Positions 1,646 through 48,814 of a DNA stretch of 64,000 bases are shown piece after piece. A program made the position numbers and the translations under genes. The notes below the pieces were generated by a model that saw only the letters and a list, made by a program, of their open reading frames with translations, searched no databases and was not told where the DNA came from. Source of the DNA: an uncultured Klebsiella sp. (GTDB taxonomy: Bacteria; Verrucomicrobiota; Verrucomicrobiia; Limisphaerales; SXTU01); assembly GCA_964578245.1 (NCBI GenBank), contig CAZOCL010000002.1:1730-65729 (forward strand), read 5' to 3'. The stretch's first letter is position 1; each line of letters begins with the position of its first letter.

Positions 1646-1647
1646 CC

Positions 1648-27491: not shown

Positions 27492-28526
27492 GTGCGCACC
27501 CTCTGGCTCCATCTGAAATCCCGGCGCTGGCTGCTACGGCTGCTGCTGCTCGGAGTTTCCACGGTGGTTTCGCTGCTCCTGCTGGAGATGGCCGTCCGGG
27601 TGCTGCTGCCGTATTACCACCCCCGTGCGCAACTGGTGTTTGAAACCCGCCCCAGCGGAGTGCGGACCGGCCCGCCGGGAGCGACCCGGCGGCTGTTCAA
27701 CTCCAAGAGCGACTTCGATGTGGCGGTGACGTTCAACCAGCTCGGGCTGGTGGACCGCAAGGATCTCCGGACGGCCAAGACCAACGCGCTCTACGCCATC
27801 GGCGACTCCTACACGATGGGCTGGGGCCTGCCGGAGGACGAGCGGTTCAGCAACCTGCTGGAGCATCGCCTGGGCGAGCCGGTGTATAACGTCGCCATCC
27901 CCACGGACCTCCGGGGCTACCAGCAACTGGCGGCCTATGCCGAGGAGCACGGGCCCCGGATCAGCCGGCTGGTGCTGGCCATCTGCATGGAGAATGACCT
28001 GCATGATTACCGGGCCGACCAGCCGCCCCGCGCTCCGCGCAAGCCCCCTTCCCTGCTGGTCCGGACGGAACGCTGGGTGCGGACGCACAGCGCGCTCTTC
28101 CTCGCCACCACGCATAATCTCCAGAAGATCATGTTCATCCGCCGGTCGCTGGAACGCCTCGGACTGGTCGCGGACGGCGAACAACCATTGCGGCTCCGGA
28201 CGTTCGACGAACCCGCGCTGCGCTCCTGCCGGGATCAAGTGCTCCCGCTTGCGCAAGGCCGCGAACTGGTGGTGCTGCTGATCCCGGAACGCAGCCTCTG
28301 GCTCCGTGGCGAAGGGGACACTGGCCGCACCCTGCACGATCGATTCGCCGCCCTGCTCCGCGAGGCCGGGCTGAAAGTGGTGGACCCGTTGCCGAGGTTT
28401 GACCGCGAGGGCAACCCGCTGCAGTTCTATTTCAAGGCCGATCCACACTGGAACGCGCGCGGGCACCAGATTGCGGCGGAAGAACTCCTGGCGGCGATGA
28501 AGCCAGCGGGAACCAACGCGCCCTGA
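27492..28526 (+). CDS. SGNH/GDSL-family hydrolase with an N-terminal membrane anchor
   Basis: GTG at 27492. Transmembrane segment WLLRLLLLGVSTVVSLLLL, and YAIGDSYTMGWG (the GDS block I). The longer 27264 start overlaps the previous gene. Confidence 0.65.
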   Translation: MRTLWLHLKSRRWLLRLLLLGVSTVVSLLLLEMAVRVLLPYYHPRAQLVFETRPSGVRTGPPGATRRLFNSKSDFDVAVTFNQLGLVDRKDLRTAKTNALYAIGDSYTMGWGLPEDERFSNLLEHRLGEPVYNVAIPTDLRGYQQLAAYAEEHGPRISRLVLAICMENDLHDYRADQPPRAPRKPPSLLVRTERWVRTHSALFLATTHNLQKIMFIRRSLERLGLVADGEQPLRLRTFDEPALRSCRDQVLPLAQGRELVVLLIPERSLWLRGEGDTGRTLHDRFAALLREAGLKVVDPLPRFDREGNPLQFYFKADPHWNARGHQIAAEELLAAMKPAGTNAP

Positions 28527-28527
28527 A

Positions 28528-29118
28528 TCACCGCCCGAACTGCTTCAGAAACGCCGCCGCGTCGAAACCGTCCGGCTTGAAGACCAGTTCCGGGTTCAAC
28601 GGCGGTTCATAGCCCGCGTCCACCCCGGTCATCTCCCGCAGGGCACCGGTGGCCGCCCGACGGTAAAGCCCCTTGGGATCGCGTTGCTGGCAGACCACCA
28701 GCGGCGTGTCGGCGAACACCTCGATGAACTGGCCGGGGGCAAAGGTCCGGCGGAGGGCGTCCCGCTGCGCGCGGAAGGGCGAGATGCAGGCCACCACCAC
28801 GGTGAAGGACTGCGCCACCAGCACGCGCGCCATCTCGCCGATGCGCCGGACGTTCTCATGCCGGGCAGCCTCCGAGTATCCCAGGTCCGCGTTGACGGTC
28901 CGACGCAGGTCGTCCCCATCCAGCACCACGACCGGGAGGTTCTGTGACTGCAGCGCGGCCTGAATGCGCTGGGCGAGTGTGGTCTTGCCAGCGGCGGGCA
29001 GGCCGGTGATCCAGATCACGGCGGGCAACTCAAGGGTGGCGGTGGGTGCGCTCAACGGCAGAAAGCAGGCGGCAATTGCACGGGAAAGGCAAGCCGAAGC
29101 CAGCCTCTCCGGGGACAA
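28528..29118 (-). CDS. cysC: Adenylylsulfate (APS) kinase
   Basis: VIWITGLPAAGKTTLA P-loop, LDGDDLR, ACISPFR and PKGLYRRA are canonical APS-kinase blocks. The start is TTG. Confidence 0.88.
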   Translation of the reverse strand: MSPERLASACLSRAIAACFLPLSAPTATLELPAVIWITGLPAAGKTTLAQRIQAALQSQNLPVVVLDGDDLRRTVNADLGYSEAARHENVRRIGEMARVLVAQSFTVVVACISPFRAQRDALRRTFAPGQFIEVFADTPLVVCQQRDPKGLYRRAATGALREMTGVDAGYEPPLNPELVFKPDGFDAAAFLKQFGR

Positions 29119-29161
29119 TCACCTTGAAGGCGGCGCAGGCGGTCCTAGACTTTGACCCAGC

Positions 29162-29920
29162 GTGTTCGCCCAGCTCAAAGCCAGCCTCAAGAACTGGCAG
29201 CACTCTCGCTCGGCCCCGGCCCGCGTGGTTTATCAAGTTTCCCGGCTGGGCTGGTTGGGCTGCCGTCTGCTCGTGGATGCCCGCCTGCGGGCGGAGACCC
29301 TCGGCCACTGGCGGCACCGCGCCGCCTATCTTCAGCCAGCCACGGAAACCTACCTCAATCGTTATCCCGGGCTGTTCAGGCAATGCCGACTGCGGTTCGC
29401 CGAACATCCTAATCCCCGGATCCTCTCGTTTGGCTGCTCGACCGGAGAGGAGGTCCGCTCCCTGGCCAAACACCTGCCGCAGGCGGTCATTGTAGGGGTG
29501 GACATCAATGACTGGTGCCTGTCCGAGTGCTGGCGCAAGGACCCGCACCACCGGCACACCTTCCTTCATCGGCTATCTGCGGAGTTTGAACGAGAGCCGG
29601 CTTTCGATGCCATCTTCTGCATGGCCGTCCTGCAGCATACGCTGAACCGCGCCAGCGCCGACAATGCCGTGGCCCAAGGCATCACCTTCGAGGAATTCGC
29701 GCGCGAAGTGGCCGTGCTGGATGCCAAGCTGAAAACCGGCGGCCTGCTCTTTCTGGATCATGTGGACTTCCGTTTTGGGGACACGCCCTGCGCCAGCCGC
29801 TACACCCCGCTGGACTTTCCAAGAAATCGCGCCCCGCGCCCGCGGCCCATCTACGGGCCGGATCACCGCAAGCTGGCTGACGTGCAGGACACGCCAAGGG
29901 TGTTCGTCAAGCAGCGCTGA
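29162..29920 (+). CDS. Class I SAM-dependent methyltransferase (lasso-cluster associated)
   Basis: ILSFGCSTGEEVRSLA (motif I) and VGVDIND. GTG start, divergent from cysC with a 43-nt gap. Confidence 0.6.
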   Translation: MFAQLKASLKNWQHSRSAPARVVYQVSRLGWLGCRLLVDARLRAETLGHWRHRAAYLQPATETYLNRYPGLFRQCRLRFAEHPNPRILSFGCSTGEEVRSLAKHLPQAVIVGVDINDWCLSECWRKDPHHRHTFLHRLSAEFEREPAFDAIFCMAVLQHTLNRASADNAVAQGITFEEFAREVAVLDAKLKTGGLLFLDHVDFRFGDTPCASRYTPLDFPRNRAPRPRPIYGPDHRKLADVQDTPRVFVKQR

Positions 29921-30034
29921 ACCGGCAGCCTCCGCGCCGGCCCTGACCACAACCGGCCAGCCAGAGAACCCCGGCCCAGACCGGGAGATTTCAACTTGTT
30001 CCAATCGCCGGACCGCAGGTAGGATTTCGCACTC

Positions 30035-30967
30035 GTGGCTCCGACACTGGACCCTCTTCCGCCGCACCGACACCGCGTCTATGGCCTGACCATCGCGGCA
30101 TGGATTCCCTTTCCCCAGTTGCCAACGGCACCGGCAGACGCCCCTGTGGACGCTGTCTTCCGCCTCGGCGAGGTGCCGGCGGAGCTGCCGGATTTCAAGA
30201 GCCGGGGTGCCCGCTTCCGGGTTGCGCCGGGCAGATTGCTGGTCTGGATTAACGGCGTGGCGCGCTATCTGGTGGTGGACGGCCGGGAGATCATCGTCCA
30301 GCCGGCCCCGGACGCGGAGGAGAACGACCTGCGCGAGCTGCTCCTCTGCTCGCCGATGGGTGCCCTGCTGCATCAACGCGGCGTGCTGCCGCTGCATGCC
30401 AGCGTCATCGCCACCCCGCGCGGGGCGGTCGCGTTCATGGCCCACTCCGGGCATGGCAAGTCCACCCTCGCCGCGCACTTCCGCCAGCGCGGCTTCAAGA
30501 TTCTCGCCGATGACATCGCAGCGGTGTCCTTTGATGCGGGGGGGAGGCCGATGGTCGCGCCGGGCTACCCCCAGTTCAAACTCTGGCCGGACTCCGTCAA
30601 CGAACTGGGCCACAGCACGACGGATCTGCGTCAGTTCCGGACGAATGTGGAGAAGTTCTTCCTCACGTTCCCAGACGCCTTCCACTCCGAGCCGCTGCCG
30701 CTCACGCAACTGTATGTGGTGGAGGGACGGAATGACGCTGACGGGGTGACATTGGAGCCCTTGAGCGTGCCGGACAAGCTGCGCTACCTCCTCACCCACA
30801 CTTACCGCGCCCAGTATGTGCCTGGGCTCGGCCGGGAGAAGGCCCACTTCCAGACCGTGGGGCGGCTGGCGGCCACAGTTTCCGCCAAGCGCGTGCGGCG
30901 GCCCACCGATGGCACCTTCCGCCTCGAACAACTGGCCGACGCCTTGACGGCCGATTTTGCGCGATGA
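30035..30967 (+). CDS. HPr-kinase-like serine kinase (lasso peptide kinase type)
   Basis: LHASVIATPRGAVAFMAHSGHGKSTLAA P-loop, as in the HprK C-terminal domain. GTG start, followed by cluster genes. Confidence 0.75.
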   Translation: MAPTLDPLPPHRHRVYGLTIAAWIPFPQLPTAPADAPVDAVFRLGEVPAELPDFKSRGARFRVAPGRLLVWINGVARYLVVDGREIIVQPAPDAEENDLRELLLCSPMGALLHQRGVLPLHASVIATPRGAVAFMAHSGHGKSTLAAHFRQRGFKILADDIAAVSFDAGGRPMVAPGYPQFKLWPDSVNELGHSTTDLRQFRTNVEKFFLTFPDAFHSEPLPLTQLYVVEGRNDADGVTLEPLSVPDKLRYLLTHTYRAQYVPGLGREKAHFQTVGRLAATVSAKRVRRPTDGTFRLEQLADALTADFAR

Positions 30968-31809
30968 AAGGCATCGTCTGGCTGGCGAGTTATCCGAAGT
31001 CCGGTAACACTTGGTTCCGGATTTTCCTCGCCAACCTGCTGGCCGACCAGCCGACGCCGGTGGACATTAACGCCATTGAAACCGAGAACTTCGCCGCTCG
31101 AACCACTTATGACCGGGCGCTGGGCTGGGAGACCTCCGACCTGACGCTGGCGGAAGCGTCCCAAGCCCGCCTCGATGTGCAGGAAGCCCTCGCACTGGAG
31201 GACAATGTCTTCTTCAAGGTCCACGAGTCCTTCCGTGATCCAGTCAGCCACGCGCTGCTGTTCTCCCGGGTCGCGACCCGAGCTGTGTTCTACTTTCTCC
31301 GCAACCCGCTGGATGTGGCAGTCTCCTTCAGCCATCATCGGGGCAGGGACCTCGACAACACCATTGTCCGGATGAACAATCCAAACGCCACCATTGCGCC
31401 AGGCCAGGACGGACTGGGACCGCAATTACCCCAGCCCACGGGCGACTGGAGCTGGCATGTGCGGAGCTGGGCCGACGAACCGGGGCTGCCCGTGCTGGTC
31501 CTGCGCTACGAGGACATGCTGGCGCGCCCGCAGGAGGTGTTTCAAGCAGCCTGTGAGTTCGCTGGCCTGCCCAGCGAGCCAGCCCGGGTGGCCCGCGCAC
31601 TGAACCATGCCCGGTTTGAGAATGTCCGCGCGCAGGAGCAGGCAAAAGGCTTCCGTGAGGCGATGGACCGGCGCCCCTTTTTCCGGCATGGCAAGGCTGG
31701 CGGCTGGCGTGAAACCTTGTCGCCAGCGCAGGTTGCCGCTATCGTCTCCCAACATGGCGATGTCATGCGGCGCTTCGGATACCTGAACGCCGATGGTTCG
31801 CCGGTGTAA
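30964..31809 (+). CDS. PAPS-dependent sulfotransferase
   Basis: SYPKSGNTWFR (5'-phosphosulfate binding loop) and FLRNPLDVAVSFSHH (3'-phosphate binding). ATGA overlap with the kinase gene. Confidence 0.82.
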   Translation: MKGIVWLASYPKSGNTWFRIFLANLLADQPTPVDINAIETENFAARTTYDRALGWETSDLTLAEASQARLDVQEALALEDNVFFKVHESFRDPVSHALLFSRVATRAVFYFLRNPLDVAVSFSHHRGRDLDNTIVRMNNPNATIAPGQDGLGPQLPQPTGDWSWHVRSWADEPGLPVLVLRYEDMLARPQEVFQAACEFAGLPSEPARVARALNHARFENVRAQEQAKGFREAMDRRPFFRHGKAGGWRETLSPAQVAAIVSQHGDVMRRFGYLNADGSPV

Positions 31810-31814
31810 GTTTT

Positions 31815-31913
31815 CACACCACGAATGAACACGAATGAACACGAAGATGGCCATGCAGGGCAGAAGCGCCATTCTCCCGGCTTGAATTCGTGTGCGTTGG
31901 TGTGCATTCGTAG
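31815..31913. repeat. Foldback of 'acgaatgaac' units between the sulfotransferase and B1 genes
   Basis: cacaccacgaatgaacacgaatgaacacgaag (31815-31846) faces cttgaattcgtgtgcgttggtgtgcattcgtag (31881-31913); the pairing is imperfect. Confidence 0.75.
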
Positions 31914-31929
31914 TTTCTGATTTTTGCCT

Positions 31930-32217
31930 ATGACCAAGACCGCCCTCACCCTCCAGTCTGTCGTCGCCCAGTCGCCTGATCTGGTCGGGACGAACATCGA
32001 GGACCACACCGCGCTCCTGAGCATCACCAACGGTGCGTATTACAGCCTGGACCCCGTGGCCAGCCGCGTCTGGCAGCTCATTGAGCAGCCGCGCCCGGTG
32101 ACGGCGGTCGTGGACCATTTGCTCACCGAATACACCGTGGAGCGGGCCACTTGCGAGGCGCACACGCTCGCCTTCCTCCAGCAGCTCGCCGACGCCGATC
32201 TGCTGGCCAAGCAGTAA
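31930..32217 (+). CDS. Lasso peptide biosynthesis B1 protein (PqqD-family RRE)
   Basis: LLSITNGAYYSLDPVASRVWQLIEQPRPVTAVVDHLLTEYTV...AFLQQLADADLL is a PqqD-like winged helix. Confidence 0.82.
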   Translation: MTKTALTLQSVVAQSPDLVGTNIEDHTALLSITNGAYYSLDPVASRVWQLIEQPRPVTAVVDHLLTEYTVERATCEAHTLAFLQQLADADLLAKQ

Positions 32218-32663
32218 TGTCCCGCCTCGCCAAGTTTCTCCGGCATGACTGGGCCGGACGCGGCCTGCTGCTGGAGGCGCTGGCCTGGCTGGTCTGGGCC
32301 AAGCTGCTCCTGCTGGTCGTCCCGTTTCGCTGGATTGCGCCGCGCCTGGGCAGGCCAATGACGGAGAGCGCCGCCAGCCTGACCGAGCCCGGAAGCCTGC
32401 TTGCCTCCCGAATTTCCTGGGCCGTGCAATCCGTGGCGGCAAACGTGCCGCTAGGGCTGGTCTGCCTGCCGCAAGCCATGGCGGCCAAATGGATGCTCCG
32501 CCGCAGGCACCTCGCCAGCACGCTTTACCTCGGCGTGGCCCGGCCGGATGAGGCGAAGTTCACCGCGCACGCCTGGCTCCGCGCCGGCAACAAGATCCTG
32601 ACCGGCCGCGCCGAGAGCCGCACCCACACCACGCTCGCCTCCTTTGCTGAGGAATGGCCGTGA
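32217..32663 (+). CDS. Lasso peptide biosynthesis B2 protein (transglutaminase-like leader protease)
   Basis: TAATG overlap with B1. CLPQAMAAKWML (catalytic Cys) and FTAHAWL (His), with the size and N-terminal hydrophobic helix typical of B2. Confidence 0.82.
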   Translation: MSRLAKFLRHDWAGRGLLLEALAWLVWAKLLLLVVPFRWIAPRLGRPMTESAASLTEPGSLLASRISWAVQSVAANVPLGLVCLPQAMAAKWMLRRRHLASTLYLGVARPDEAKFTAHAWLRAGNKILTGRAESRTHTTLASFAEEWP

Positions 32664-32688
32664 ATTCCATCCCGCCTGCCGCGTTCCG

Positions 32689-34605
32689 ATGAGCGCTCTC
32701 TGCGGCTTCCTCAACCTCGACGCCGCTCCGGCTGACTCCCAGCTCGTCGCGGCGCAGGTGGCCCGATTGCAGCATCGCGGGCCGGACGGTTCCGGCACGT
32801 TCACGGAGGGTCCCTGCGCGCTGGGCCATCTGCTCCTGCGCATCACGCCGGAGGCGGACGGGGAAACGTCTCCCTTTCACAGCCCGGACGACCAGCTCGT
32901 GATCGCCTTCGACGGCCGGCTGGATCACCGCGAGGACCTGCTGGCCGCGCTCGGCGTCCCGCCCTCGGAGCGTGGCCTGCCCGATCCCGCGCTCATCCTC
33001 CGCGCGTATGCGCAGTGGGGTGCCGATTGCGTGACCAGGCTCGACGGCGAGTTTGCCTTCGCCGTCTGGGACCGGCGGCGGCAGGAGTTGTTCTGCGCGA
33101 GTGACGCTTTTGGCAGCCGCCCGTTTTACTTTTACCAGGACGCGCGGCGGCTGGTGTTTGCCAGCGCCATCCGCGGCGTGCTGGCCGTGCCCGGGGTGCC
33201 GCGCGAACTCGACGAGCTGTCCCTCGCCTGCTCGCTCGGAGGCGCGCCCCAACCGCCGGGCCAGACGCTCTACGCCCGCATTTCCTTTCTGCCCGGTGGT
33301 CGCACGCTGACCGTGCCGCGCGGTGGCCGGCCGGTGATCCGGACCTGGTGGCAGTTGACGATGGAACCGGAAATCCAGCTCCGCTCCACCGAAGACTATA
33401 CCGAGGCCTTGCGTGAACTGCTGGAGCGGGCCACGCGCTCAGCCATGCGCACGCGGCATCCGGTGGGTGCCATGCTCAGCGGCGGGCTGGACTCCAGCGG
33501 CGTAGCCTGCCTCGCTGCGCGCGACCTCGCCTCGCGCGGCCAGCGGCTCGTCACGGTGTCCACGGTGTTGCCCGAGGATTTCCAAGGCGTGGAATGGGAG
33601 AAGGAGGAAAGCGCGTTCATCCGCAGCGCCCTGGAGCGCTACCCGAACATGGCCCCGCACTGGGCGCGGGGCCTGGCTTTTCCAGTCATCACCTTCAATG
33701 ACGCGGCCTACCAGTTGCACGACGAGCCTGACAACGATCCAAAATCTTTCCGGACAGCGGAGCTGTTCCGGCTTGCGGAGCAGGCGGGGACGCGCGTCCT
33801 GCTCGGCGGCATGGGGGGCGACATGGCCGCTTCGTTCAAGGGCACCGGTTACCTGCAGCAGCTCGCCCTGGGCGCGCGCTGGGGGGAACTGGTCCGTCAC
33901 CTCCAGTTGCTGGCGCGCGTCCGGGGCGAGACGGTGCCCGGCATCTTCCGGCGCGAAGTGCTCCGGCCGCTGGCCCCCGAATGGCTGCGCCGTTGGAACG
34001 ACACGTTCCGGCACGATGCCGCAGCAACTCGGGATGAGTTCAGCATCCAGCCCGAGTTCGCCGCGCGGATGCAGATGGCCGAACGCCGCCGGGCCGCCGG
34101 ACGGGACATCGAAAGGCCGGCGGATTTCCGACGCCTGCAGGTTTCGCTGGCGAACGCCGGCCTCCTCGGCGGCGGCTCAGGCTGGGCGAGCCGCCACACC
34201 CCGCACATGGAAAGCCCCCAGCCGCTCATGAACCGCCGGCTTTGGGAGTGGTGCCACCGGGTGCCGCTGGGAGAGTTCACGCGGGATGGCATGTCCCGCG
34301 GGCTCTACCGCCGTGCGCTGCACGATGTGCTGCCGGAGCGCATTCTGCGCCGCCACTCCAAAGGCTGGTTCGCGCCGGACTACGTGCAGCGCCTCGCTGC
34401 CTGCCGCCCGGCGATGGAACGCTTCCTCGCGGAGCATCCCGCGCAGGACGCGGTTTGGAATTACGTGAGCCGCCCTCAAGTGGAGGCGACCTTACAGCGT
34501 CTGGCCGCCGCTGGCACTCAGGCCAGATGGGACAATCGTTACCAAATCATCCTGTGTCAGGGCCTCCGGCTAGCACACTTTGTCACTTGGATGCGGGGGC
34601 GGTGA
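32689..34605 (+). CDS. Lasso peptide cyclase (asparagine-synthetase-like, C protein)
   Basis: MSALCGFL N-terminus, MLSGGLDSSGVA PP-loop, and about 640 aa in length. It follows B2. Confidence 0.85.
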   Translation: MSALCGFLNLDAAPADSQLVAAQVARLQHRGPDGSGTFTEGPCALGHLLLRITPEADGETSPFHSPDDQLVIAFDGRLDHREDLLAALGVPPSERGLPDPALILRAYAQWGADCVTRLDGEFAFAVWDRRRQELFCASDAFGSRPFYFYQDARRLVFASAIRGVLAVPGVPRELDELSLACSLGGAPQPPGQTLYARISFLPGGRTLTVPRGGRPVIRTWWQLTMEPEIQLRSTEDYTEALRELLERATRSAMRTRHPVGAMLSGGLDSSGVACLAARDLASRGQRLVTVSTVLPEDFQGVEWEKEESAFIRSALERYPNMAPHWARGLAFPVITFNDAAYQLHDEPDNDPKSFRTAELFRLAEQAGTRVLLGGMGGDMAASFKGTGYLQQLALGARWGELVRHLQLLARVRGETVPGIFRREVLRPLAPEWLRRWNDTFRHDAAATRDEFSIQPEFAARMQMAERRRAAGRDIERPADFRRLQVSLANAGLLGGGSGWASRHTPHMESPQPLMNRRLWEWCHRVPLGEFTRDGMSRGLYRRALHDVLPERILRRHSKGWFAPDYVQRLAACRPAMERFLAEHPAQDAVWNYVSRPQVEATLQRLAAAGTQARWDNRYQIILCQGLRLAHFVTWMRGR

Positions 34606-34689
34606 ATTCGCCCACGGCTCGGTCGCGGCTGCCAGGCAGGGATTCCGAACGGAGCCGCACTCCAAGCGGTGCGCCTTGGCCGCAACCGT

Positions 34690-34987
34690 CTGCCTCAGGG
34701 GCGCATCTCAGTTTCTTGCAAGGCGTCTCCGGTCGAGCCGAGAAACCCGGAGGGTTTCAAGGTGAATAGCCGTGGGTGAAATCCACGAGGGGGGCGGTTT
34801 TCCGTCTCCACCCTGAAAGGGTCGAACGCGCGCGTATCAGAGGTGTTGCATTCAACCCCTCCCGGGGTTGTGGCCCATGACGCGCTCACCGTGGGTTTCA
34901 CCCACGGCTATTCACATGACACCCTCCAAGGTGTTTGAAGACTGTGCCAGCACGCCTGCAAGAAATCGAGTTGCGCCCCTGCCTCAG
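34690..34987. mobile_element. Foldback (MITE-like) element of about 300 bp with imperfect terminal inverted repeats of about 100 bp
   Basis: The inner arms are perfect: gtgaatagccgtgggtgaaa (34762-34781) against tttcacccacggctattcac (34896-34915). The outer arms caggggcgcatctcagtttcttgca and tgcaagaaatcgagttgcgcccctg are imperfect. No transposase is present. Confidence 0.7.
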
Positions 34988-35004
34988 TTGGCAGAAAAAA
35001 AGAC

Positions 35005-35034
35005 TTGTCGGCTTGCTAAAAATGTGAGCATACT
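35005..35034 (+). promoter_or_regulatory. Candidate promoter of precursor gene A1
   Basis: TTGTCG (35005-35010), an 18-nt spacer, then CATACT (35029-35034), in an AT-enriched patch 17 nt before the ATG. The match is weak. Confidence 0.25.
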
Positions 35035-35050
35035 TCGCGCGGATTTGAAA

Positions 35051-35221
35051 ATGAGCCTTATGAACACGACCACCGCCTCCGCCTCAGTCGAAAACACCGA
35101 GTCCAAGCAGGTTTGGACCGCCCCCACTTTGACGACGCTTTCGCTCCCGCTGGGAACGCTTTCCAATGCTGCCACCGGTGCGGATGGCATGTCGTCGAAA
35201 GCGGCGGGAAGCCTAAGCTAA
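35051..35221 (+). CDS. Lasso peptide precursor A1 (56 aa)
   Basis: MSLMNTTTASASVENTESKQVWTAPTLTTLSLPLGTL|SNAATGADGMSSKAAGSLS. It has a WxxPxL leader motif, Thr at -2 and Asp at core position 8. Its paralog is at 36727. Confidence 0.8.
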   Translation: MSLMNTTTASASVENTESKQVWTAPTLTTLSLPLGTLSNAATGADGMSSKAAGSLS

Positions 35222-35248
35222 GACCATCTTTTTCGTCGGTTCCAATTT

Positions 35249-35285
35249 GCCAAAAGTCCTCCTCGCGAGTGCTTTTGGCTTTTTT
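35249..35285 (+). terminator. Rho-independent terminator after precursor A1
   Basis: Stem gccaaaag (35249-35256) paired with cttttggc (35272-35279), followed by tttttt (35280-35285). Confidence 0.65.
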
Positions 35286-35343
35286 GTGATCCGATCCGTC
35301 AGCCATTTTTCACGTTCACGTTCACGTCTCTCGCCTTCCCCAC

Positions 35344-36495
35344 ATGTATAGCTTGCGCGGTTATGGAGAAATGATCGCGGATGAAGGCCGGGCCACCGCC
35401 TTCGAGCAATCGATCCGTGCCGCCGTCAAGCCACAGTCTGTGGTGCTCGAGCTGGGCACGGCCACCGGGCTGATGGCCCTCTGGGCTGCGCAGGCCGGTG
35501 CGCGCCATGTCCATGCCGTCGAGCCAGATAAATCCATCGTCCTCGCCCGACAAAGTGCGAGAGACAATGGGTTTGCCAGCCGCATTACCTGTCATCAGAA
35601 GCTGTCCACCCAGCTCACGCTGTCGGAGCGGGCGGACGTGTTCATAGAGGATTTGCGCGGGTCCATGCCGTGCTGCAGGACTCGGTTGCTGGACATCATG
35701 GACGCGCGGGCGCGGCTGCTCACGCCGGATGCGACTTTGATCTGCCAGCGGGATACGTGCTTCGTCACGGTGGCCGAGGCCGAGAAGCCGTCGCGTCACA
35801 TGCACGCAGTGTGGGACGGAAGCCGCTGGGGGCTGGACTTGAGGGCGGTGCAACGGCTGGCACCCAATTGCATGACCCATCATCGCTGCGCCCCCGAGGA
35901 ACTGCTAGCGGAACCGCGCGCCTGGGCGGAGATTCACTACCCGACCGTCAGTTCGCCCCATGTGCGGGGCGCGGCGGAGCTCACTGTCCTTCGTCCTGCC
36001 ACCGCGCACGGGCTGGCGCTCTGGTTCGACGCGGAACTGTTCGGCGGCATCCGTTTCTCGAATGCCCCAAGCGAGCCGAAGCACGTTTACAACAATGCCT
36101 TCCTGCCATGGCCAGCACCCACGCCCCTGCAGGCGGGCGACCGGGTGGTGGTGAAGCTGGACGCGGTCTTTACTGGCGGAGAATATGAGTGGAACTGGGC
36201 GAGCACCGTCTGGCGCGAAGGCGCGGCGGAACCCGTCGCGCGGTTCAGCCAGTCCACGTTACAAGGCCGGCCGGTTTCCGCGCCGGCACTGGCCCTTCGC
36301 ACCGGCAGCTTCCGCCCGCACCGCAATGACGCCGCCGAAGTGGAGCGCTTCCTGCTCGAACGCATGGATGGCCAGGCCACCAACGACCAACTGGCCGCCG
36401 CGCTCCGCACCCAGTTTCCCAATGCCTTCCCCACCGACACCGCCGCGCTCGCCCGCGTGGTGGACACCGTGGAGAAGTTCAGCGCTACGAGTTGA
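35344..36495 (+). CDS. PRMT-like class I methyltransferase with a PqqD/RRE-like C-terminal domain
   Basis: VLELGTATGLMALWAAQAGARHVHAVE (PRMT-type motif I) and a beta-barrel-like middle region. The C-terminal FLLERMDGQATNDQLAAALRTQFP...ALARVVDTVEKF resembles PqqD. Confidence 0.65.
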   Translation: MYSLRGYGEMIADEGRATAFEQSIRAAVKPQSVVLELGTATGLMALWAAQAGARHVHAVEPDKSIVLARQSARDNGFASRITCHQKLSTQLTLSERADVFIEDLRGSMPCCRTRLLDIMDARARLLTPDATLICQRDTCFVTVAEAEKPSRHMHAVWDGSRWGLDLRAVQRLAPNCMTHHRCAPEELLAEPRAWAEIHYPTVSSPHVRGAAELTVLRPATAHGLALWFDAELFGGIRFSNAPSEPKHVYNNAFLPWPAPTPLQAGDRVVVKLDAVFTGGEYEWNWASTVWREGAAEPVARFSQSTLQGRPVSAPALALRTGSFRPHRNDAAEVERFLLERMDGQATNDQLAAALRTQFPNAFPTDTAALARVVDTVEKFSATS

Positions 36496-36506
36496 ACCGC
36501 GAGCGC

Positions 36507-36626
36507 TCACCATCCCAGCCACGCGCGCAGGCCGCCGCTGATGAACAGCACCGCTGGATCGCAGGCCAGACATGCCCAGATGCAGGAGAATGACTCCGGC
36601 CATGAACACCGCCGCCGTCAGCCCGC
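36507..36626 (-). pseudogene. Truncated, frame-disrupted copy of the 3' end of membrane-protein gene 37908..38747
   Basis: Minus-strand reading gives GLTAAVFMAGVILLHLG, then a deletion of about 37 nt, then WACLACDPAVLFISGGLRAWLGW*. The intact gene reads AAVFVAGVFLLHLG...WAFLACYPAVLFTSGGLRTWLGW*. Confidence 0.75.
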
Positions 36627-36726
36627 GCGAATGCGTTCGTCACTGCCAGTTGAAGAATGAAAGACTTGCAGGTTCGCGGGCAATACGACTATCCTCCACA
36701 AGGTTTTACCGCAGGGATTTGTGAAC

Positions 36727-36876
36727 ATGAACACCGCCACCGTCGAAAACACTGATGGGTCCAAGCAGGTTTGGACCGCCCCCACTTTGACAACGCTTTC
36801 GCTCCCGCTGGGAACGCTGGCCACCGGTAACAATGGTTCGGATGGTGGCGTCATGGCCAGCACCACCAGGAGTTAG
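36727..36876 (+). CDS. Lasso peptide precursor A2 (49 aa)
   Basis: MNTATVENTDGSKQVWTAPTLTTLSLPLGTL|ATGNNGSDGGVMASTTRS. About 60 nt of the leader are near-identical to A1. It is below the ORF-track cutoff. Confidence 0.8.
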   Translation: MNTATVENTDGSKQVWTAPTLTTLSLPLGTLATGNNGSDGGVMASTTRS

Positions 36877-37041
36877 CTGGTTGTTGTCAAATGGCAGCCT
36901 GACCATGCACTGCCCGCACCGTGGAGAAGTCCAACCCCACGGGCTCGGAGGCACGGAACGTGGCCGTGAGGCCGCCGAAACGTGAGCAGGCCACGGTGGA
37001 TGCGAACGCACTACTCCAGTCAGGGTTCTGCGGCGTTCCAT

Positions 37042-37815
37042 TCAAAACAAGCCCGTGTCGTAGTGTTTCAGCCACCGGAACAGTCCACGGTGCTCCTCCG
37101 GAATGGCAGCCAGACGCTCTGGTGAAATCTTCATAAATGGCTGCTGGCGGTAGTTCTGGTAGTCCTTGAACCACGGGCGGTGATACACGCAGTAGAGCAT
37201 GGGCCGAGGCTGGTCGGAAAGGTTCGCGGTGCCGTGATGGAACAGCCGGTAGTCCACCAGCAGGCCGCAGCCCAGCGGCACGGTGGGATCCAGCCCGGGA
37301 GTTGCCTTGCCCTCCTCGTCCGGTTTCAAGTGCGAGCCGGGCATCAGGCGGGTGGTGCCGTTGGTTGCGTTGAACTCGCGGAGCGGGATGAAGAGATTGA
37401 CCGCGTGGGGCGGGAGAAAACGGTTTAGCACGGGACCGAACAGCAGCGGGTTGTCCCGATGAAGGTGCTGGTCCTTGGCTCCCGGCAAGGATGTGACTGA
37501 GGCAAAGCTGCCCAGCACCAAGTCCGACCCGAGCAACTGCTGGAGCACCGGCAGGACGAGCGGGTTGGCGTAAAGCGCCGCATCAAGAAAGGGCATCTCC
37601 ATCTCCAAAGTAACCATGAACCGGCGGCTGCCCACCTTGAGCGCATCCCCTGGCCGGTCTTCGTCGAAATACCGGGCGTAACGCTCGCAATACACTTCAC
37701 CGAGCTGGCTGACGAGTTCACGGGGCAGCAGGTCACGAACGAGCAGGCATCCATGACGGCGAAATTGCTCGGCGCAGCTTTCCGGAGTCGAGGCGGCGGT
37801 GAGTTCGGGAACCAT
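37042..37815 (-). CDS. PhyH-family Fe(II)/2-oxoglutarate dioxygenase
   Basis: DQHLHRD (HxD) and LFHHGTAN (distal His). The length and pattern are those of phytanoyl-CoA-dioxygenase-like hydroxylases. Confidence 0.75.
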   Translation of the reverse strand: MVPELTAASTPESCAEQFRRHGCLLVRDLLPRELVSQLGEVYCERYARYFDEDRPGDALKVGSRRFMVTLEMEMPFLDAALYANPLVLPVLQQLLGSDLVLGSFASVTSLPGAKDQHLHRDNPLLFGPVLNRFLPPHAVNLFIPLREFNATNGTTRLMPGSHLKPDEEGKATPGLDPTVPLGCGLLVDYRLFHHGTANLSDQPRPMLYCVYHRPWFKDYQNYRQQPFMKISPERLAAIPEEHRGLFRWLKHYDTGLF

Positions 37816-37907
37816 GGGCGCAATTGAACAACCGGGGATTTACGACTGCAAGCGTGGGCTGCCACCCCCAGCCGCAGATGGCCTGCCGTTCGGTGCGATG
37901 GCGAAAC

Positions 37908-38747
37908 TCACCACCCCAGCCACGTGCGCAGCCCGCCGCTGGTGAACAGCACCGCTGGATAGCAGGCGAGGAAGGCCCATAGAAACGGCGCGAGGCCCAT
38001 GAAGTGGCCGATGCCGAGGTGCAAGAGGAAGACCCCGGCCACAAACACCGCCGCCACCGGCCCGCCCGTCAGCCAGGCCAGCGGGAAGCCGATCTCCAAC
38101 ACGAGCGCGCCCCAGGTCGCCGTCCGATTCACTGCGGGGTGCGCGGCCAGCCACGCCGCCAGCCGGCGGTCTCCCATCAGGTCCTGCCGCAGCAGGCAGC
38201 CGATGGCTTCTCCCGAGCGCCAGGCCCCGGTCGTGAGGGCCTTGAGCACACCGCTCGTGAAGTAGGCCAGCGCGCACTGACCGGCGATGAACCACAGGAC
38301 CGCCTGCGCCACGGATGCGCTCGCCGGCGCGAGTTCCCGCAGCACGAGCGCGCCCAGCACGGCAAGCCGCATCCGGTCCGCCCCGAGCACGCCCAGACCG
38401 AATTGCCGCACATTGATCAGCACGGCGGCCACCACGCCCAGCCACAAGGCGAGGGGACGCACCACGGGGTCGGCCGGCACCAGCACCAGCACCAGCCCGG
38501 CGAGCAGTCGGGCCACCTGGAGGGCAGCAAACCCGGTGGCGCGGAACAGGCAACCCAGCGCCACCGGACCTTCGCCCCGCAGGCGCGAGCGCTGGCGCAG
38601 CAGTGGCCAGCCCAGCACCGCGTCATCCGCCCAGGCGTTGCGGGCGGCCAGCCATTCGGCCGCCGAAACCGCGAGACTGACGCCAGCAAGCCGTGTGACC
38701 AGTGTCACGCACGCGAAGGGATCCTGCAGCCAGACGGCGTCAATCAC
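37908..38747 (-). CDS. Polytopic membrane protein, unknown function
   Basis: About 8 hydrophobic segments. The GTG start overlaps the upstream stop (GTGA). No family was recognised with confidence. Confidence 0.6.
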   Translation of the reverse strand: MIDAVWLQDPFACVTLVTRLAGVSLAVSAAEWLAARNAWADDAVLGWPLLRQRSRLRGEGPVALGCLFRATGFAALQVARLLAGLVLVLVPADPVVRPLALWLGVVAAVLINVRQFGLGVLGADRMRLAVLGALVLRELAPASASVAQAVLWFIAGQCALAYFTSGVLKALTTGAWRSGEAIGCLLRQDLMGDRRLAAWLAAHPAVNRTATWGALVLEIGFPLAWLTGGPVAAVFVAGVFLLHLGIGHFMGLAPFLWAFLACYPAVLFTSGGLRTWLGW

Positions 38748-39280
38748 ACGGCCTCCCCTCCCGTTGCCAGCGGCAGAAACTCGGAGGTGTAGAGGCGCTG
38801 CTCGGGGGCGTCCGCCGTGATCAGCAGTTGCTCGCGCAGTTCAAACTGCCGCGCGGTCGTTCCCGGCGGGCCGGCCACGCCCGCCACGCAGTGCCATAAA
38901 GCCCGCCAGGCTGGAGTGCTGGCCAGGCGTTCCGCCGGCAGCGCGGCGCGCACGCGGTCGGCCAGCAGCTCCGCGAGCGAATACTGCGCGTCGGCTGCGA
39001 ACAGCTCCGGATTGAAGAACGCGCGCCAGGGCCGCTGGCTGCGCTCGGCAGGCAACCACCGCCATTCGCCGACGCTCCCAGCGGCATCCCGGTCGCGATA
39101 ATAGAGCCGCACATTCGTCGGGAGCCCGGTGTAAAGCCGCCAGCTCGGCACGAGCCGTAAGAAGTCGAATCGCGCCATGACTGCGGTCAGGCGGGTGAAG
39201 CACAGTTGGTAGGCCACGGAGACGGCGAACCATGCTGCCAGCAGCAGGAGGGCGAGCCATTCCATGACGGCGAGATTCAT
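38744..39280 (-). CDS. Membrane-anchored hypothetical protein
   Basis: ATG at 39280 (MNLAVMEWLALLLLAAWFAVSVAY...) in an ATGA overlap with the upstream gene. The longer 39460 start overlaps that gene and is unlikely. Confidence 0.5.
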   Translation of the reverse strand: MNLAVMEWLALLLLAAWFAVSVAYQLCFTRLTAVMARFDFLRLVPSWRLYTGLPTNVRLYYRDRDAAGSVGEWRWLPAERSQRPWRAFFNPELFAADAQYSLAELLADRVRAALPAERLASTPAWRALWHCVAGVAGPPGTTARQFELREQLLITADAPEQRLYTSEFLPLATGGEAV

Positions 39281-40464
39281 GATTGGGCAGCGAGCCGCCG
39301 CTTCACCCACAGCAGCGGCCAGAGCACGTAGTAGAGGGCGAACCACCGGTCCGGGAGGGGCAGCGTCTGCCAGTCCGCCGGGTTCACCACGCGCGGACGC
39401 AACATGCGGAGGCGCACGCGCCAGCTTGGCTGCAGCCGCCAGGCGTAGCCAACCATCCACCAGTGCGCCGAGCCGGTCTTGATTTCATCCGGCGTCAGCT
39501 CCATGTGGCGGCAGGCGTCGTCCACGAGCTGGGTGAGCACGGGAGTTTCCGGCGGAGCCGGCAGCCCGGCCGGCAGCGGCACGGCGAGGAGTTCACGCGC
39601 GAGCAGGACGCTCTGCCAGAAGACGCGCTCCAGTTTCGTCGCCTCCGCCCGGGCGAGCAGGCGCGGCCAGTCGAGTGTGCCAGCCTGCATCAGCAGCGCG
39701 ATGTCCAGGAGCCAGAAGAGCCGGAACCAGCCGTGGTCCGCGCCGTGCAGGAGCAGGTGCAGCGCGGCCGTCTCCGCCGGCAGCACGGCGATGCGCTGGC
39801 CCGCAATGGTCGCCGTGCCCGGAGCTTCCCCCAGCGTGCTGCGGTGGAAGTGCTCGTGGTTCACCAGCCGCCACATGATCTCCAATCGCAGCGCGCCGTC
39901 CGCGCTGAAATACTCAAACTCATGACGCACGCTGAAGTATTTCTGCTGCTGGAGCGGCGTGAGCGGAAAGTCCGGCTGGGTGCGACGGAACCCGGCGTCT
40001 TGCAGCAGCCGGTCCGCGCGTTCGGCGTCCGCCTGGCGGATCAGCAGGTCCAGGTCGCCCGAGTGGCGCAGGCCCAGATCGCCATACAAGTCGCGAGCCA
40101 GCAGCGGCCCTTTCACGCTCGTGACGGGGATGCCGGCTTGTTCGAGCAGCTTCACGAGGCGCGTCAGTTCGCCGGTGCGCTGCATGGCGCGGAGGGCGGT
40201 GTCCCGGGCACTGCTGGCGAGCCGCTGGCGCACTGCCTCCGGCAGCGCGGCCAAAGCCTCGCGGGGCAGCCGTTGTTGCAGGAACGCACCCACGCGATGC
40301 CGCTCGACGAGGGCCAGGAACGTGCCGGCGTCCGTGCCCTCCGGCCAGGGCAACTCCGGCGGCGCAGTGCGCAGCGCGACCCGCAAGGCGTGGAGGAGGA
40401 GGCGTATTTCCGCCGGCCAGTGGCGGGCGCGGCCGGGGAGTTCCAGGGGTGGCACGGGGTTCAT
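39277..40464 (-). CDS. NTP_transf_5-type uncharacterised nucleotidyltransferase
   Basis: ATG at 40464 (MNPVPPLELPG...). VKGPLLARDLYGDLGLRHSGDLDLLI (G..hS.DlDlL motif) and HGADHGW are typical of this family. Confidence 0.65.
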   Translation of the reverse strand: MNPVPPLELPGRARHWPAEIRLLLHALRVALRTAPPELPWPEGTDAGTFLALVERHRVGAFLQQRLPREALAALPEAVRQRLASSARDTALRAMQRTGELTRLVKLLEQAGIPVTSVKGPLLARDLYGDLGLRHSGDLDLLIRQADAERADRLLQDAGFRRTQPDFPLTPLQQQKYFSVRHEFEYFSADGALRLEIMWRLVNHEHFHRSTLGEAPGTATIAGQRIAVLPAETAALHLLLHGADHGWFRLFWLLDIALLMQAGTLDWPRLLARAEATKLERVFWQSVLLARELLAVPLPAGLPAPPETPVLTQLVDDACRHMELTPDEIKTGSAHWWMVGYAWRLQPSWRVRLRMLRPRVVNPADWQTLPLPDRWFALYYVLWPLLWVKRRLAAQS

Positions 40465-40761: not shown

Positions 40762-40791
40762 AAAAAAGGGCGGCTCCTCGCGGAGCCGCCC
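40762..40791 (-). terminator. Rho-independent terminator of the MFS gene
   Basis: On the minus strand, gggcggctcc-gcga-ggagccgccc followed by tttttt (plus-strand aaaaaa at 40762-40767). Confidence 0.7.
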
Positions 40792-40815
40792 TCTGGAGCG
40801 CTACCAGCAGCGCCA

Positions 40816-42399
40816 TTACTTGCCGTCGGCACCACCGCCTTCAAGGTGCACGGCCTTGTAACCGCCGATGGACTTGAAGTAGAGCAGGATGCCCAGATAA
40901 ATCAGCGCCATCATGGCGGGGATGGCGGAATCGGCCACGAGCGTGCGGCGATCACCGGCAATGGAGGCTTCCGCCGCAGCCTTCTGCTCCGGCGTGCGCT
41001 TGGCCGCCTCTGCCTTCTGAGCATCGGCGAGTTTGGTGCCATCGAGGCCGTTCACTTCGCTGAAGAAGAGGAAGGAACTGGACTTGTCCGCCTTGAACTG
41101 TTTGTAGGCTTCCGGGTTTGCCTTCTGCAATTCCTCGCCAGCGAAGCGGTCCTTGGCGTAGCCAAGACCGGGGGAGCCGAGCATGCCCGCCGACATCATG
41201 CCGATGCCACCCATGATGGAGATGGCGATGGCACCCGTGCGCGGGAAACGATCTGAGGCCACGGCCAGCATGGTCGGCCAGAAGAAGGTCTTGCCGATGC
41301 CGTAAACCGTGAGGGCGAGTAGCGCCCCGCCGAAGCTGGAGATGCCGCTGACGAGGTTGAGGCCGACGCACGCGAGCACCGCGCAGGTGAGCAGGATGGC
41401 CACCGGGGTAAGGCCGATTTTGCGCTCGATGAAGTCCGCGCAGAAGCGCAGTGCAAACATCGTGGCCGAGGTGAAGACGAAGAGAATCTTGCCTTCGCTG
41501 GAGCTGAGGATGTTGCCGGTGATGTTCTGAATCCATCCGTCCGTGCCGAGTTCGACTGCGCCAACCAGCGCATGGGCCAGGAAAAGGACGAACAGGAGCA
41601 CCGAGCCCATGGAGAACTTGGTCATCACCGCGACCACCACGAGCAACGCGCCGCCGATGCCATAGGAAATCCCGGCGGAAAGACCGAGCGTGTCCTTGCA
41701 GAAGAGCGCCAGCAGGCTGCACACAACGAGGCCGCCAAGGATGCCGACATCCTTGAGCATTTCGCCGAGGCTCAGCCCTTTCTTGGAAGCCTCCGATTTG
41801 GGGAAGCTCTGGCCGAAGAACATGATGCCGTAGGCGACGGTGGGGATCAGGTAGAGGCCGAGCTGGATCTTCCAGTTGACCTTCATCTGGTCGTCCAGCA
41901 CCCAGCCCAGCACGCCACCGATGATGAGGCCGGCGGGCCAGGAGGCATGGAGGATGTTCAGGTAGTGCGTGCGGTTGTGCGGGAAAAGTGTGGCCACGAG
42001 CGGATTGGCGACGGCTTCAAGCGTTCCGTTGGCGAAGGCGAAGATGAACATGCCCCACTTGAGCATGTCGAAGGCGTTCTCCTTGCTCGTGGCCCCGAAG
42101 GTCACGAAGGCGGACAGCACATGCAGCGCGAAGGCGACAATCACCAGCTTGCCGTAGCCGATCTTGTCGCAGACCACGCCACCGATGATGATGCCGAAGC
42201 AGAAGCCGGTGAAGCCAGCGCCGCCGATCGCCCCAAGCTGGGCACCCGTAAAGCCAAACTCCTCGCCCCAGTTGTCAAAGATGCCGCCGCGGATGGCGAA
42301 GCCGACACCGGCAGCGAGAATGGCCATGAAGCCGGCCCACAGCAGCCGTTTGGCATTGGGCGCGATGGCCTCGTTGGAGATCGTTTTGTCTTCTATCAT
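40816..42399 (-). CDS. MFS transporter
   Basis: About 12 transmembrane segments. [12 protein letters not shown] loop 2-3 motif and a long hydrophilic C-terminal tail. Confidence 0.8.
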
Positions 42400-43567: not shown

Positions 43568-44006
43568 GGTATATGGCTGGTTAACGATTGGCAGCGCGCA
43601 CCATGCCCGCTCCGCCGACGTCCAGCCATGAGTTCCTGCGCATTCGATTTGAACAATTTCCCGCCGGTCGTGGACGCGAAAAAGCGCTTCCACGAATGAG
43701 TTTGACCGGCGGCAACGCGGCGAATCAAACCGCTCCGCCATTCGACCGTCAACGCGAAACTGGAAAACGTGCAACGAGGACGGGCGGAACTTATCTCACC
43801 ACTCGTCGGCCGGGTCCGGAAATCCGAAGGGGAGGCCGGTGCGAAGGAGCGGAAGCATTTCCCAATTCGCGACCTTGCGCGCCGTTCGCGTCTGCGTTCC
43901 GTTCCTTTCACATGGCCGCGAGTCAACCCAGCTTGGTGGTTTGGCTCGCGGGGCTCCTGACTTTGCGGCTTGCCACGCCCGGGCCTTTTCGCTTAGAAGT
44001 CGGGGG

Positions 44007-45080: not shown

Positions 45081-45086
45081 ACTGAC

Positions 45087-45755: not shown

Positions 45756-45756
45756 A

Positions 45757-46368: not shown

Positions 46369-46371
46369 CCG

Positions 46372-47046: not shown

Positions 47047-47082
47047 GACCGCTCGGCGGCGCGAGCCGCCGGCCAACCGACC

Positions 47083-48792: not shown

Positions 48793-48814
48793 GCAGTCGC
48801 GAATTTCTAGTTCC

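Follow-up and report, generated by a model that had tools for sequence, protein, structure and literature searches.

A predicted, richly tailored kinase-type lasso-peptide gene cluster in a Verrucomicrobiota-like genome

Lasso peptides combine a compact form and great stability with antibiotic and receptor-binding activities, and the range of what can be built on these scaffolds broadens with every tailoring reaction that is added. The subject of this report is a predicted lasso-peptide gene cluster at 27492-40464 of a 64,000-nucleotide stretch of contig CAZOCL010000002.1 (assembly GCA_964578245.1), the whole of which was analysed and is referred to here as the window. Its closest described counterparts are the kinase-type clusters, an established type named after paeninodin (PMC8498205), in which a kinase phosphorylates the C-terminal Ser of the linear precursor, several phosphates being added by the proteobacterial enzymes (PMC8498205, section 8). 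A nucleotidyltransferase encoded in a paeninodin-like cluster of Bacillus pseudomycoides adds hexoses to the phosphate of the lasso peptide pseudomycoidin (PMC8498205, section 8), and HprK kinases and nucleoside triphosphate (NTP) transferases were described in 2026 as 'typical secondary modification enzymes' of such clusters (PMC13381572, section 6). Lasso clusters combining kinase, sulfotransferase and nucleotidyltransferase genes have been noted by genome mining since 2014-2016 (PMC4289311; PMC8498205, section 8), the sulfotransferase found in some of them being listed as uncharacterised in a 2021 review (PMC8498205, section 8).

With the paeninodin-type systems of Paenibacillus dendritiformis (paeninodin) and Sphingobium yanoikuyae (polyphosphorylated), the window cluster shares split B1 and B2 genes, a cyclase gene (C), an HPr-kinase-like kinase and a core ending in Ser, and, with some members, also a sulfotransferase and a nucleotidyltransferase (PMC8498205, section 8; PMC4289311). 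It differs from them in its Verrucomicrobiota-like phylum, in the absence of an ATP-binding cassette (ABC) exporter, in two paralogous precursors, in overlapping kinase and sulfotransferase genes served by a dedicated adenosine 5′-phosphosulfate (APS) kinase, and in a further complement comprising a methyltransferase of the protein arginine methyltransferase (PRMT) fold, a class I methyltransferase, a PhyH-family oxygenase, an SGNH/AlgX-like protein and a pair of membrane proteins. The pseudomycoidin cluster likewise features a kinase and a nucleotidyltransferase, there acting on the C-terminal Ser to give a phospho-glycosylated lasso (PMC8498205, section 8), but belongs to Bacillota, has an exporter and has no sulfotransferase role shown; the NTP_transf_5 protein of the window is a candidate for a similar sugar transfer.

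The window cluster is therefore best described as a richly tailored new member of the known kinase-type lasso family, and it points to no new kind of system; it holds more candidate decorating enzymes than any studied example, although the principle is not new. The description 'unusually decorated', used in the initial annotation of this DNA, was overstated, as the enzyme combination has been known since 2014-2016, the kinase-sulfotransferase cassette is recurrent and the full layout is common to at least two related loci. The novelty claimed at the same time holds in a narrower form, the combination of kinase, sulfotransferase and nucleotidyltransferase having been described: in the searchable literature, which covers few subscription papers and in which absence is no proof, neither a sulfated lasso peptide nor one from Verrucomicrobia was found to have been characterised, and PRMT-type enzymes are not mentioned for lasso clusters.

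Because the G+C content of the window is ~65%, raw lists of open reading frames (ORFs) were crowded with spurious frames; those with high third-position G+C were retained and searched against Pfam and NCBIfam, and gene contexts were compared across 80 loci related through the cyclase, a set that includes the window's own contig. All cluster ORFs are full length with a strong coding-type third-position G+C bias, catalytic motifs of the kinase, the sulfotransferase, B2 and C are intact, and stop and start codons overlap at four junctions: kinase/sulfotransferase (ATGA), B1/B2, NTP_transf_5/partner (ATGA) and partner/membrane protein (GTGA). The segment very probably represents an intact and functional split-B lasso-peptide cluster of the known phosphorylated, paeninodin-like type in a Verrucomicrobiota-like genome (Table 1). 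Gene by gene, profile searches uphold the initial annotation of a complete kinase-type cluster with many candidate tailoring genes, each listed gene being present at the position given there or within a few codons of it, with scores far above chance.

The three contiguous core functions claimed for the locus are real, with PqqD, Transglut_core3/NF033537 and Asn_synthase matches for B1, B2 and C, respectively. B2 carries the Cys motif CLPQAM and the His motif HAWL and scores 88 bits against the NCBIfam model lasso_biosyn_B2 (NF033537; cut-off 33). Within the SGGLDSS PP-loop of C, SGGLDS is invariant among 22 relatives, and the residue after the initiator Met is not Cys, so that the glutaminase nucleophile is missing, as expected of a lactam synthetase and not of a glutamine-using asparagine synthetase.

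Both short precursor genes are also present, paralogous over an 87-nt repeat (87% identical), with ~110 nt of leader DNA nearly the same in the two, and endowed with the leader and core pattern of lasso peptides. The sequence WTAPTL in both leaders is a WxxPxL form of the [Y/W]xxPx[L/V/I/F/A] motif recognised by discrete lasso RiPP recognition elements (RREs; PMC13381572, section 6). The junctions read ...LGTL/SNAATGAD... in A1, which ends ...GSLS, and ...LGTL/ATGNNGSD... in A2, which ends ...TTRS, each with Thr at -2, a small core residue 1 (Ser1 and Ala1, respectively), Asp8 and a C-terminal Ser. Orthologous precursors in five related loci (L002, L003, L004, L005 and L084) keep the WxxPxL-type motif, Thr(-2), the small residue 1 and Asp8; all six clade precursors combine Thr(-2), Ser or Ala at core position 1 and Asp8 with a C-terminal Ser or Thr, and candidate cores end in Ser or Thr in 20 of 26 cases among kinase-containing loci. 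Despite their differing sequences, the predicted masses of the undecorated, dehydrated lassos are 1663.747 Da for A1 and 1663.722 Da for A2, near-equal values that low-resolution mass spectrometry could not separate.

In an alignment of four loci (window, L002, L084 and L005), a ~60-nt block before the ATG at 35060 is the sole conserved stretch of the region between cyclase and precursor, and the ATG itself is invariant; the hairpin downstream of A1 folds better than each of 200 shuffled sequences. As a side observation, a 25-nt stretch of the 3′ end of the PRMT-fold gene (36465-36489) recurs with 84% identity at 36917-36941, just past A2, where it may be left over from the duplication that gave rise to this gene or be due to chance.

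Table 1. Features of the predicted cluster and its right border, in window coordinates, with homologue counts among the 80 cyclase-related loci (K, kinase; ST, sulfotransferase; SAM, S-adenosylmethionine; PAPS, 3′-phosphoadenosine-5′-phosphosulfate; RiPP, ribosomally synthesised and post-translationally modified peptide)
Feature	Position	Strand	Basis	Loci with homologue
SGNH/GDSL hydrolase-like protein, AlgX-type domain	27492-28526	+	Pfam ALGX E 1.9e-11; Lipase_GDSL_2 E 6e-8	
APS kinase (CysC-type), putative PAPS supplier	28528-29019	-	TIGR00455 193 bits (cut-off 139); Pfam APS_kinase E 3e-53	3/80
Class I SAM-dependent methyltransferase	29162-29920	+	Methyltransf_12/23/25/11, E ~1e-8	5/80
HPr-kinase-like peptide kinase (K)	30035-30967	+	TIGR04352 weak; family profile matches HPr kinase structures	55/80
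PAPS-dependent sulfotransferase (ST)	30964-31809	+	Sulfotransfer_1 E 2e-25	16/80
B1, PqqD-type RRE	31930-32217	+	Pfam PqqD 65 bits (cut-off 23.4), E 7.5e-18	
B2, transglutaminase-like leader peptidase (Cys protease)	32217-32663	+	Transglut_core3 E 8e-24	
C, ATP-dependent macrolactam (isopeptide) synthetase	32689-34605	+	Asn_synthase and GATase domains	
Conserved promoter-like block upstream of A1	34994-35059	+	Conserved among window, L002, L084 and L005	
Precursor A1, 53 aa	35060-35221	+	ORF translation: leader MNTTTASASVENTESKQVWTAPTLTTLSLPLGTL, core SNAATGADGMSSKAAGSLS	
Hairpin then U-run directly 3′ of A1, terminator/attenuator candidate	35249-35285	+	-26 kcal/mol, z -5.6	
PRMT-fold methyltransferase, C-terminal extension of ~80 aa	35344-36495	+	Family profile against PRMT structures	7/80, several phyla
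Precursor A2, 49 aa (51 aa if the start is GTG at 36721)	36727-36876	+	ORF translation: leader MNTATVENTDGSKQVWTAPTLTTLSLPLGTL, core ATGNNGSDGGVMASTTRS	
PhyH-family Fe(II)/2-oxoglutarate dioxygenase	37042-37815	-	PhyH E 1.9e-16	0/80
Polytopic all-helical membrane protein, 279 aa	37908-38747	-	Faint SdpB/HTTM resemblance	
178-aa partner, one N-terminal transmembrane helix	38744-39280	-	Overlapping stop/start codons with neighbours	
NTP_transf_5 nucleotidyltransferase	39277-40464	-	PF14907 E 6.6e-57	18/80, many phyla
Terminator-like hairpin between MFS gene and cluster, right border	40765-40794	-	13-bp stem, 9 G-C pairs, then T-run	

The extent of the cluster is indicated by its closest relatives, L002/L082, in which a cyclase 92% identical to that of the window stands in the order SGNH, APS kinase, methyltransferase, kinase, sulfotransferase, B1, B2, C, A, PRMT-fold methyltransferase, membrane protein, 178-aa partner and NTP_transf_5. 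The L002/L082 block is flanked by sulfite-reductase genes and an ATP-synthase operon, and that of the window by rnpA-yidD-yidC-jag and by major facilitator superfamily (MFS), GFO and pilus genes; the occurrence of the same block between unrelated flanks argues for a discrete cluster of ~27492-40464, with the SGNH gene inside and the MFS gene outside. The right border had accordingly been placed correctly at 40464, but the left border, set at 28528 in the initial annotation, lies one gene further out, at the start of the SGNH/AlgX-like gene. Protein identities between L002 and the window range from 86% to 97% for the kinase, sulfotransferase, B1, B2, C, PRMT-fold, membrane-protein and NTP_transf_5 products, L002 lacking both the second precursor and the oxygenase. 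The more distant L084 (cyclase 68% identical) carries nearly all the parts, including a second precursor and an oxygenase, together with an ABC exporter.

On sequence identity, the cyclase falls in a tight clade found in Verrucomicrobiota metagenome-assembled genomes (MAGs): ~40 database relatives are at least 49% identical to it, and the next matches reach no more than 38%. Among one-genome-per-species contigs, its close relatives are assigned to Limisphaerales, Opitutaceae and other Verrucomicrobiota MAGs, with one evidently mislabelled 'Klebsiella' and one labelled 'Proteobacteria'; a Verrucomicrobia-like origin, as had been guessed from the sequence, is supported, since the close relatives of cyclase and membrane protein that bear a believable label are without exception Verrucomicrobiota, Limisphaerales or Opitutaceae MAGs. 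Identical sequence was found on one metagenome contig and one NCBI MAG contig only, and exact look-up of six cluster proteins gave singletons in each case, so that the taxonomic placement relies on relatives. Three observations on this clade stand apart. The MAG CAZCBE01, labelled 'uncultured Klebsiella sp.', holds two clade clusters on contigs L002 and L008 (92% and 54% cyclase identity), and its label is almost certainly wrong, given two clusters of Verrucomicrobiota type in one MAG. A clade cyclase in L086 (protein P0020) has no B1, B2 or kinase nearby, its neighbours being aminotransferase, phosphodiesterase and aldehyde dehydrogenase genes, and another in L085 (protein P0014), from the window's own sample, stands beside a JmjC-type oxygenase, a PqqD protein and a 61-aa ORF.

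The identity of the kinase depends on its family. The single sequence has no match in the Pfam copy used, and its search against the Protein Data Bank (PDB) returned noise (best E 0.045, to an unrelated hydrolase), so that a profile was required; a profile of 33 homologues matches the HPr kinase structures 1jb1, 2qmh and 1ko7 (E 4e-9) across H-x-S...GxSGxGKS...DD. Residues G141, K142, S143 and D159 are invariant in the family, with the P-loop GKS and the DD motif conserved, and the HPr-kinase-like enzyme first proposed is upheld by the family profile, the single-sequence match being weak.

The sulfotransferase and its dedicated APS kinase, as first annotated, are clearly present. The PAPS-binding motifs YPKSGNTW and RNPLD of the sulfotransferase are intact, and among solved structures it comes closest to Teg12, Teg14 and StaL (E 3e-13 to 3e-9), glycopeptide sulfotransferases which share YPK(S/A)GNTW and RNPxD and likewise act on peptide natural products. 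These three enzymes belong to glycopeptide-antibiotic pathways, and the acceptor in the window must differ from theirs, since neither window core contains Tyr or another aromatic hydroxyl. In all 15 other loci that carry a sulfotransferase, the gene lies directly 3′ of the kinase gene. The labels of these loci include Desulfobacterales, Chloroflexi, Acidobacteriota, Caulobacter and Sphingomonas, and the two genes form a cassette that recurs in different phyla. As NTP_transf_5 is also present in just 4 of the 16 sulfotransferase loci and the position 3′ of the kinase is constant, the sulfotransferase seems tied to the kinase step and not to the nucleotidyltransferase. The APS kinase gene, whose maximal ORF extends to 29118, also adjoins the kinase gene in L002, L005 and L084. 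Among candidate cores of the related loci, no feature was seen that separates clusters with kinase and sulfotransferase from those with the kinase only.

It is tentatively proposed, with considerable doubt, that this cassette and its APS kinase could install a modification new to lasso peptides, either O-sulfation of Ser or Thr or a sulfate on the C-terminal phosphoserine or its glycosyl extension, acceptors considered because the cores lack Tyr, and that, with NTP_transf_5, the PRMT-fold enzyme and a precursor-paired oxygenase, the product might be a poly-anionic lasso peptide with several decorations and the first of the phylum Verrucomicrobiota. For ~10 years sulfotransferase genes have been known to lie beside lasso kinases, with no published product found, and overlapping kinase and sulfotransferase genes with their own PAPS supply offer a clean system in which to learn the role of the sulfotransferase.

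Clear family matches were likewise obtained for the class I methyltransferase, the PhyH protein and NTP_transf_5, each as annotated. Four other lasso loci (L002, L037, L064 and L073) encode homologues of the class I methyltransferase, with 31-89% identity. For the second methyltransferase, first called 'PRMT-like', the fold is very strongly indicated by a profile of nine homologues, which matches the type I enzymes PRMT2, PRMT6, PRMT1 and CARM1 (E 4e-57 to 4e-47, residues 8-269), the single sequence giving a weak match. PRMTs bind arginine through two signatures, the double-E loop with its pair of Glu residues and the THW loop. The first acidic position of the double-E loop is retained as Asp in the alignment; at the second, Glu gives way to Arg in the window protein, to Cys in that of L002, to Lys in that of L084 and to variable residues in others, and VYNNAF stands in the window protein where PRMT2 has THWKQT. 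These signatures not being conserved, and the cores of L002 and L084 being devoid of Arg, the protein is filed as a PRMT-fold enzyme and not as an arginine methyltransferase. Its C-terminal ~80 aa may form a winged-helix or RRE-like domain, for which there are sub-threshold Pfam matches to PqqD and winged-helix families (best E 0.0014 and 0.0034) and a PDB PqqD match at E 0.53.

Homologues of the PRMT-fold enzyme often adjoin a precursor gene, often directly after it, and are found in L084 in addition to those of the 80-locus set; the enzyme is encoded repeatedly in lasso clusters, across several phyla, a role in which it seems not to have been described. A side observation on the window and on L002, L023, L062, L066 and L084 is that Met occurs in the core in five of six clusters with the enzyme and in four of 20 without it (Fisher p 0.01, relatedness ignored), the sixth cluster, L058, having given just a spurious precursor candidate.

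Hydroxylation by an Fe(II)/2-oxoglutarate oxygenase encoded inside a lasso cluster has precedents in CanE (canucin) and RES-701 (PMC13352647, PMC8498205). The window oxygenase is of the PhyH type and closest, among solved structures, to the kanamycin B dioxygenase KanJ (E 2e-16). At the equivalent position, L084 carries a non-orthologous 2-oxoglutarate oxygenase fused to PqqD, again after a second precursor. With both second precursor and oxygenase present in L084 and both missing from L002, the two appear to come and go together. The SGNH/AlgX-like protein, a candidate O-acyl transferase or esterase, is called at the same position on an identical Logan contig, is retained in the syntenic block of L002/L082 and lies within the cluster in L084.

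Of the two unknown membrane proteins first listed, the polytopic 279-aa protein stands, and the second is a 178-aa protein with a single helix instead of the 238-aa maximal ORF. The polytopic protein, retained in L002, L003, L084 and L088, has no Pfam match even at E 10; it matches TIGR04033 at E 7e-6 (25.8 bits against a cut-off of 178), and one distant homologue carries PF05090. A Foldseek search of its AlphaFold2 model (pLDDT 85.5) against the PDB found nothing above a template-modelling (TM) score of 0.30. The resemblance to SdpB/HTTM is therefore a faint hint. The 178-aa partner has six homologue clusters in the database, and its model (pLDDT 72.6) gave no fold match. Distant relatives of the membrane protein lie in 31 larger metagenome loci, among which no consistent neighbours emerged, and context gives no function. 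The start codon of NTP_transf_5 is uncertain, as its maximal ORF, reaching 40761, overlaps the terminator; the L002 orthologue has 393 aa.

Several observations weigh against reading the locus as a single functional, multiply decorated cluster. B1 scores 72 bits against the lineage-specific NCBIfam model lasso_PqqD_Bac, under its cut-off of 80, and the lasso-specific profiles that capture B2 outright hold for C in rank only, the top NCBIfam model being the lasso cyclase NF033535 at 394 bits (cut-off 525). The single kinase sequence matches TIGR04352 alone, at E 2.5e-8 over 56 residues and far under the cut-off, and the 80 related loci contain no PhyH orthologue. An exporter, present in the relatives L084 and L088, is missing from the cluster. 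None of the 31 metagenome loci with distant relatives of the membrane protein carries a lasso gene, although 12 of them keep the partner, and L088 holds NTP_transf_5, a 179-aa partner and the polytopic protein in a locus of glycan type, where 10 kb of sequence include no lasso core. Everything beyond the gene calls is what we infer from them, and steric locking of the thread is uncertain, as the tails are rich in small residues.

The two metagenomic contexts just named speak for a composite locus, in which only the plus-strand genes (methyltransferase, kinase, sulfotransferase, B1, B2, C, A1, PRMT-fold methyltransferase and A2) would make and tailor the peptide, and the minus-strand operon of NTP_transf_5, partner, membrane protein and PhyH, perhaps with the SGNH gene, would form a separate envelope or glycan module. 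KanJ, the nearest solved relative of PhyH, works on an aminoglycoside sugar, the Pfam name of AlgX-type proteins refers to polysaccharide acetylation, and related clusters are embedded in polysaccharide loci with borders that are hard to define (PMC13381572). Such a division is nonetheless unlikely. The minus-strand module stays with the lasso core in three loci of differing flanks (window, L002 and L084), the membrane pair adjoins the precursor in L003, and NTP_transf_5 occurs in lasso loci of many phyla (Table 1), its counterpart in a paeninodin-like cluster being known to modify the phosphorylated lasso peptide pseudomycoidin (PMC8498205). An oxygenase follows the second precursor in both the window and L084, where the fusion to PqqD points to a peptide substrate.

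A second alternative, that the pathway is silent or incomplete in this organism despite an intact cluster sequence, for example by loss of its exporter, with no mature exported peptide made, is improbable. The absence of an ABC exporter and of an isopeptidase-like gene, as first annotated, holds among the 37 window ORFs scanned (74-4525, 7364-8191, 10200-11142 and 61285-62364 lying outside the scan), and in both L084 and L088 an exporter gene overlaps that of NTP_transf_5. An MFS gene at 40816-42399 was considered as a substitute and rejected, with a strong terminator in between, no homologue in the 80 loci and none among the called genes of L002. A nested inverted repeat of ~290 nt (34696-34981; arms of 35 nt and 25 nt), which folds as one long hairpin (-175 kcal/mol, z -11), moreover lies past the stop codon of the cyclase gene and before the promoter block conserved upstream of the precursor. 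Being absent from the same intergenic region of L002, L084 and L005, it looks like an inserted palindromic element resembling a miniature inverted-repeat transposable element; the searched arm motif has no further copy in the window, and an exact 26-mer from the insert was not found in metagenome contigs. Against a silent cluster, the ORFs are full length with coding bias and intact catalytic motifs, the insert leaves the promoter-like block untouched, an exporter could be encoded elsewhere in the genome, and L002, which likewise lacks an exporter, keeps the high protein identities given above. An exporter is an accessory part of paeninodin-type clusters and not part of the chemical definition of the type.

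That the peptides instead stay linear and phosphorylated, without a lasso, is most improbable. The LPP family of Bacillota described in 2026, whose products are of that kind, has several features in common with the window: an HprK-like kinase, an NTP transferase, a discrete RRE and the [Y/W]xxP leader motif (PMC13381572, sections 6-7). LPP clusters, however, use an SpI-type signal peptidase for leader removal and lack cyclase and B2, whereas the window has conserved B2 and C genes side by side, the cluster ORFs scanned gave no signal-peptidase match, and both cores show the lasso pattern of Thr(-2) and Asp8.

Under the preferred reading of a single kinase-type lasso cluster, A1 and A2 would be expressed from their own promoter region, read-through being limited by the hairpin and U-run after A1. 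B1 would bind the leader at WTAPTL, in keeping with the [Y/W]xxPx[L/V/I/F/A] rule, and the kinase, by analogy with paeninodin and the proteobacterial kinases, would act on the still linear precursor, phosphorylating its C-terminal Ser at the side-chain hydroxyl, possibly more than once. Family chemistry predicts cleavage by B2 after Thr(-2)-Leu(-1), where the residue pattern is present, and linkage by C of the new N-terminus (Ser1 or Ala1) to Asp8, giving an 8-residue ring and a threading tail of 10-11 residues. The sulfotransferase, fed by the clustered APS kinase, would add sulfate to an acceptor that appears functionally tied to the kinase step, and NTP_transf_5 would probably attach a nucleotide-derived or sugar group to the phosphate, by analogy with pseudomycoidin. 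Further decorations may be added by the PRMT-fold and class I methyltransferases, PhyH and the SGNH/AlgX-like protein, the dioxygenase probably being linked to the second precursor.

The cluster is a worthwhile expression target for the roles of the sulfotransferase and the PRMT-fold enzyme. Should the pathway prove expressible, Verrucomicrobiota, for which very few natural products have been characterised, would gain its first lasso peptide; should expression fail, an ordinary genome-mining annotation remains.

Some minor observations concern the surroundings of the cluster and of its relatives. No Rfam family reached threshold in a scan of the entire window. On the Limisphaerales-type metagenome contig L088, positions 1-10846 carry, in one direction, the module of NTP_transf_5, partner and membrane protein together with genes for an ABC exporter, GT4 and GT2 glycosyltransferases, a methyltransferase, a carbamoyltransferase, an acyltransferase_3 protein, a GDSL protein, an SxtJ-like protein and DUF5989; beyond its exporter, L084 has the same carbamoyltransferase, SxtJ-sized and DUF5989 genes. 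Downstream of the window cluster, 43839-60921 holds a pilM-like gene, three unassigned ORFs and a secretin gene, followed by NHL-repeat proteins of 1027, 1219 and 844 aa and DUF7305. Far upstream, 5415-7339 encodes a C-methyltransferase with a Methyltransf_14 C-terminal domain and a protein of the rhamnosyl O-methyltransferase/CmcI family (E 2e-74).

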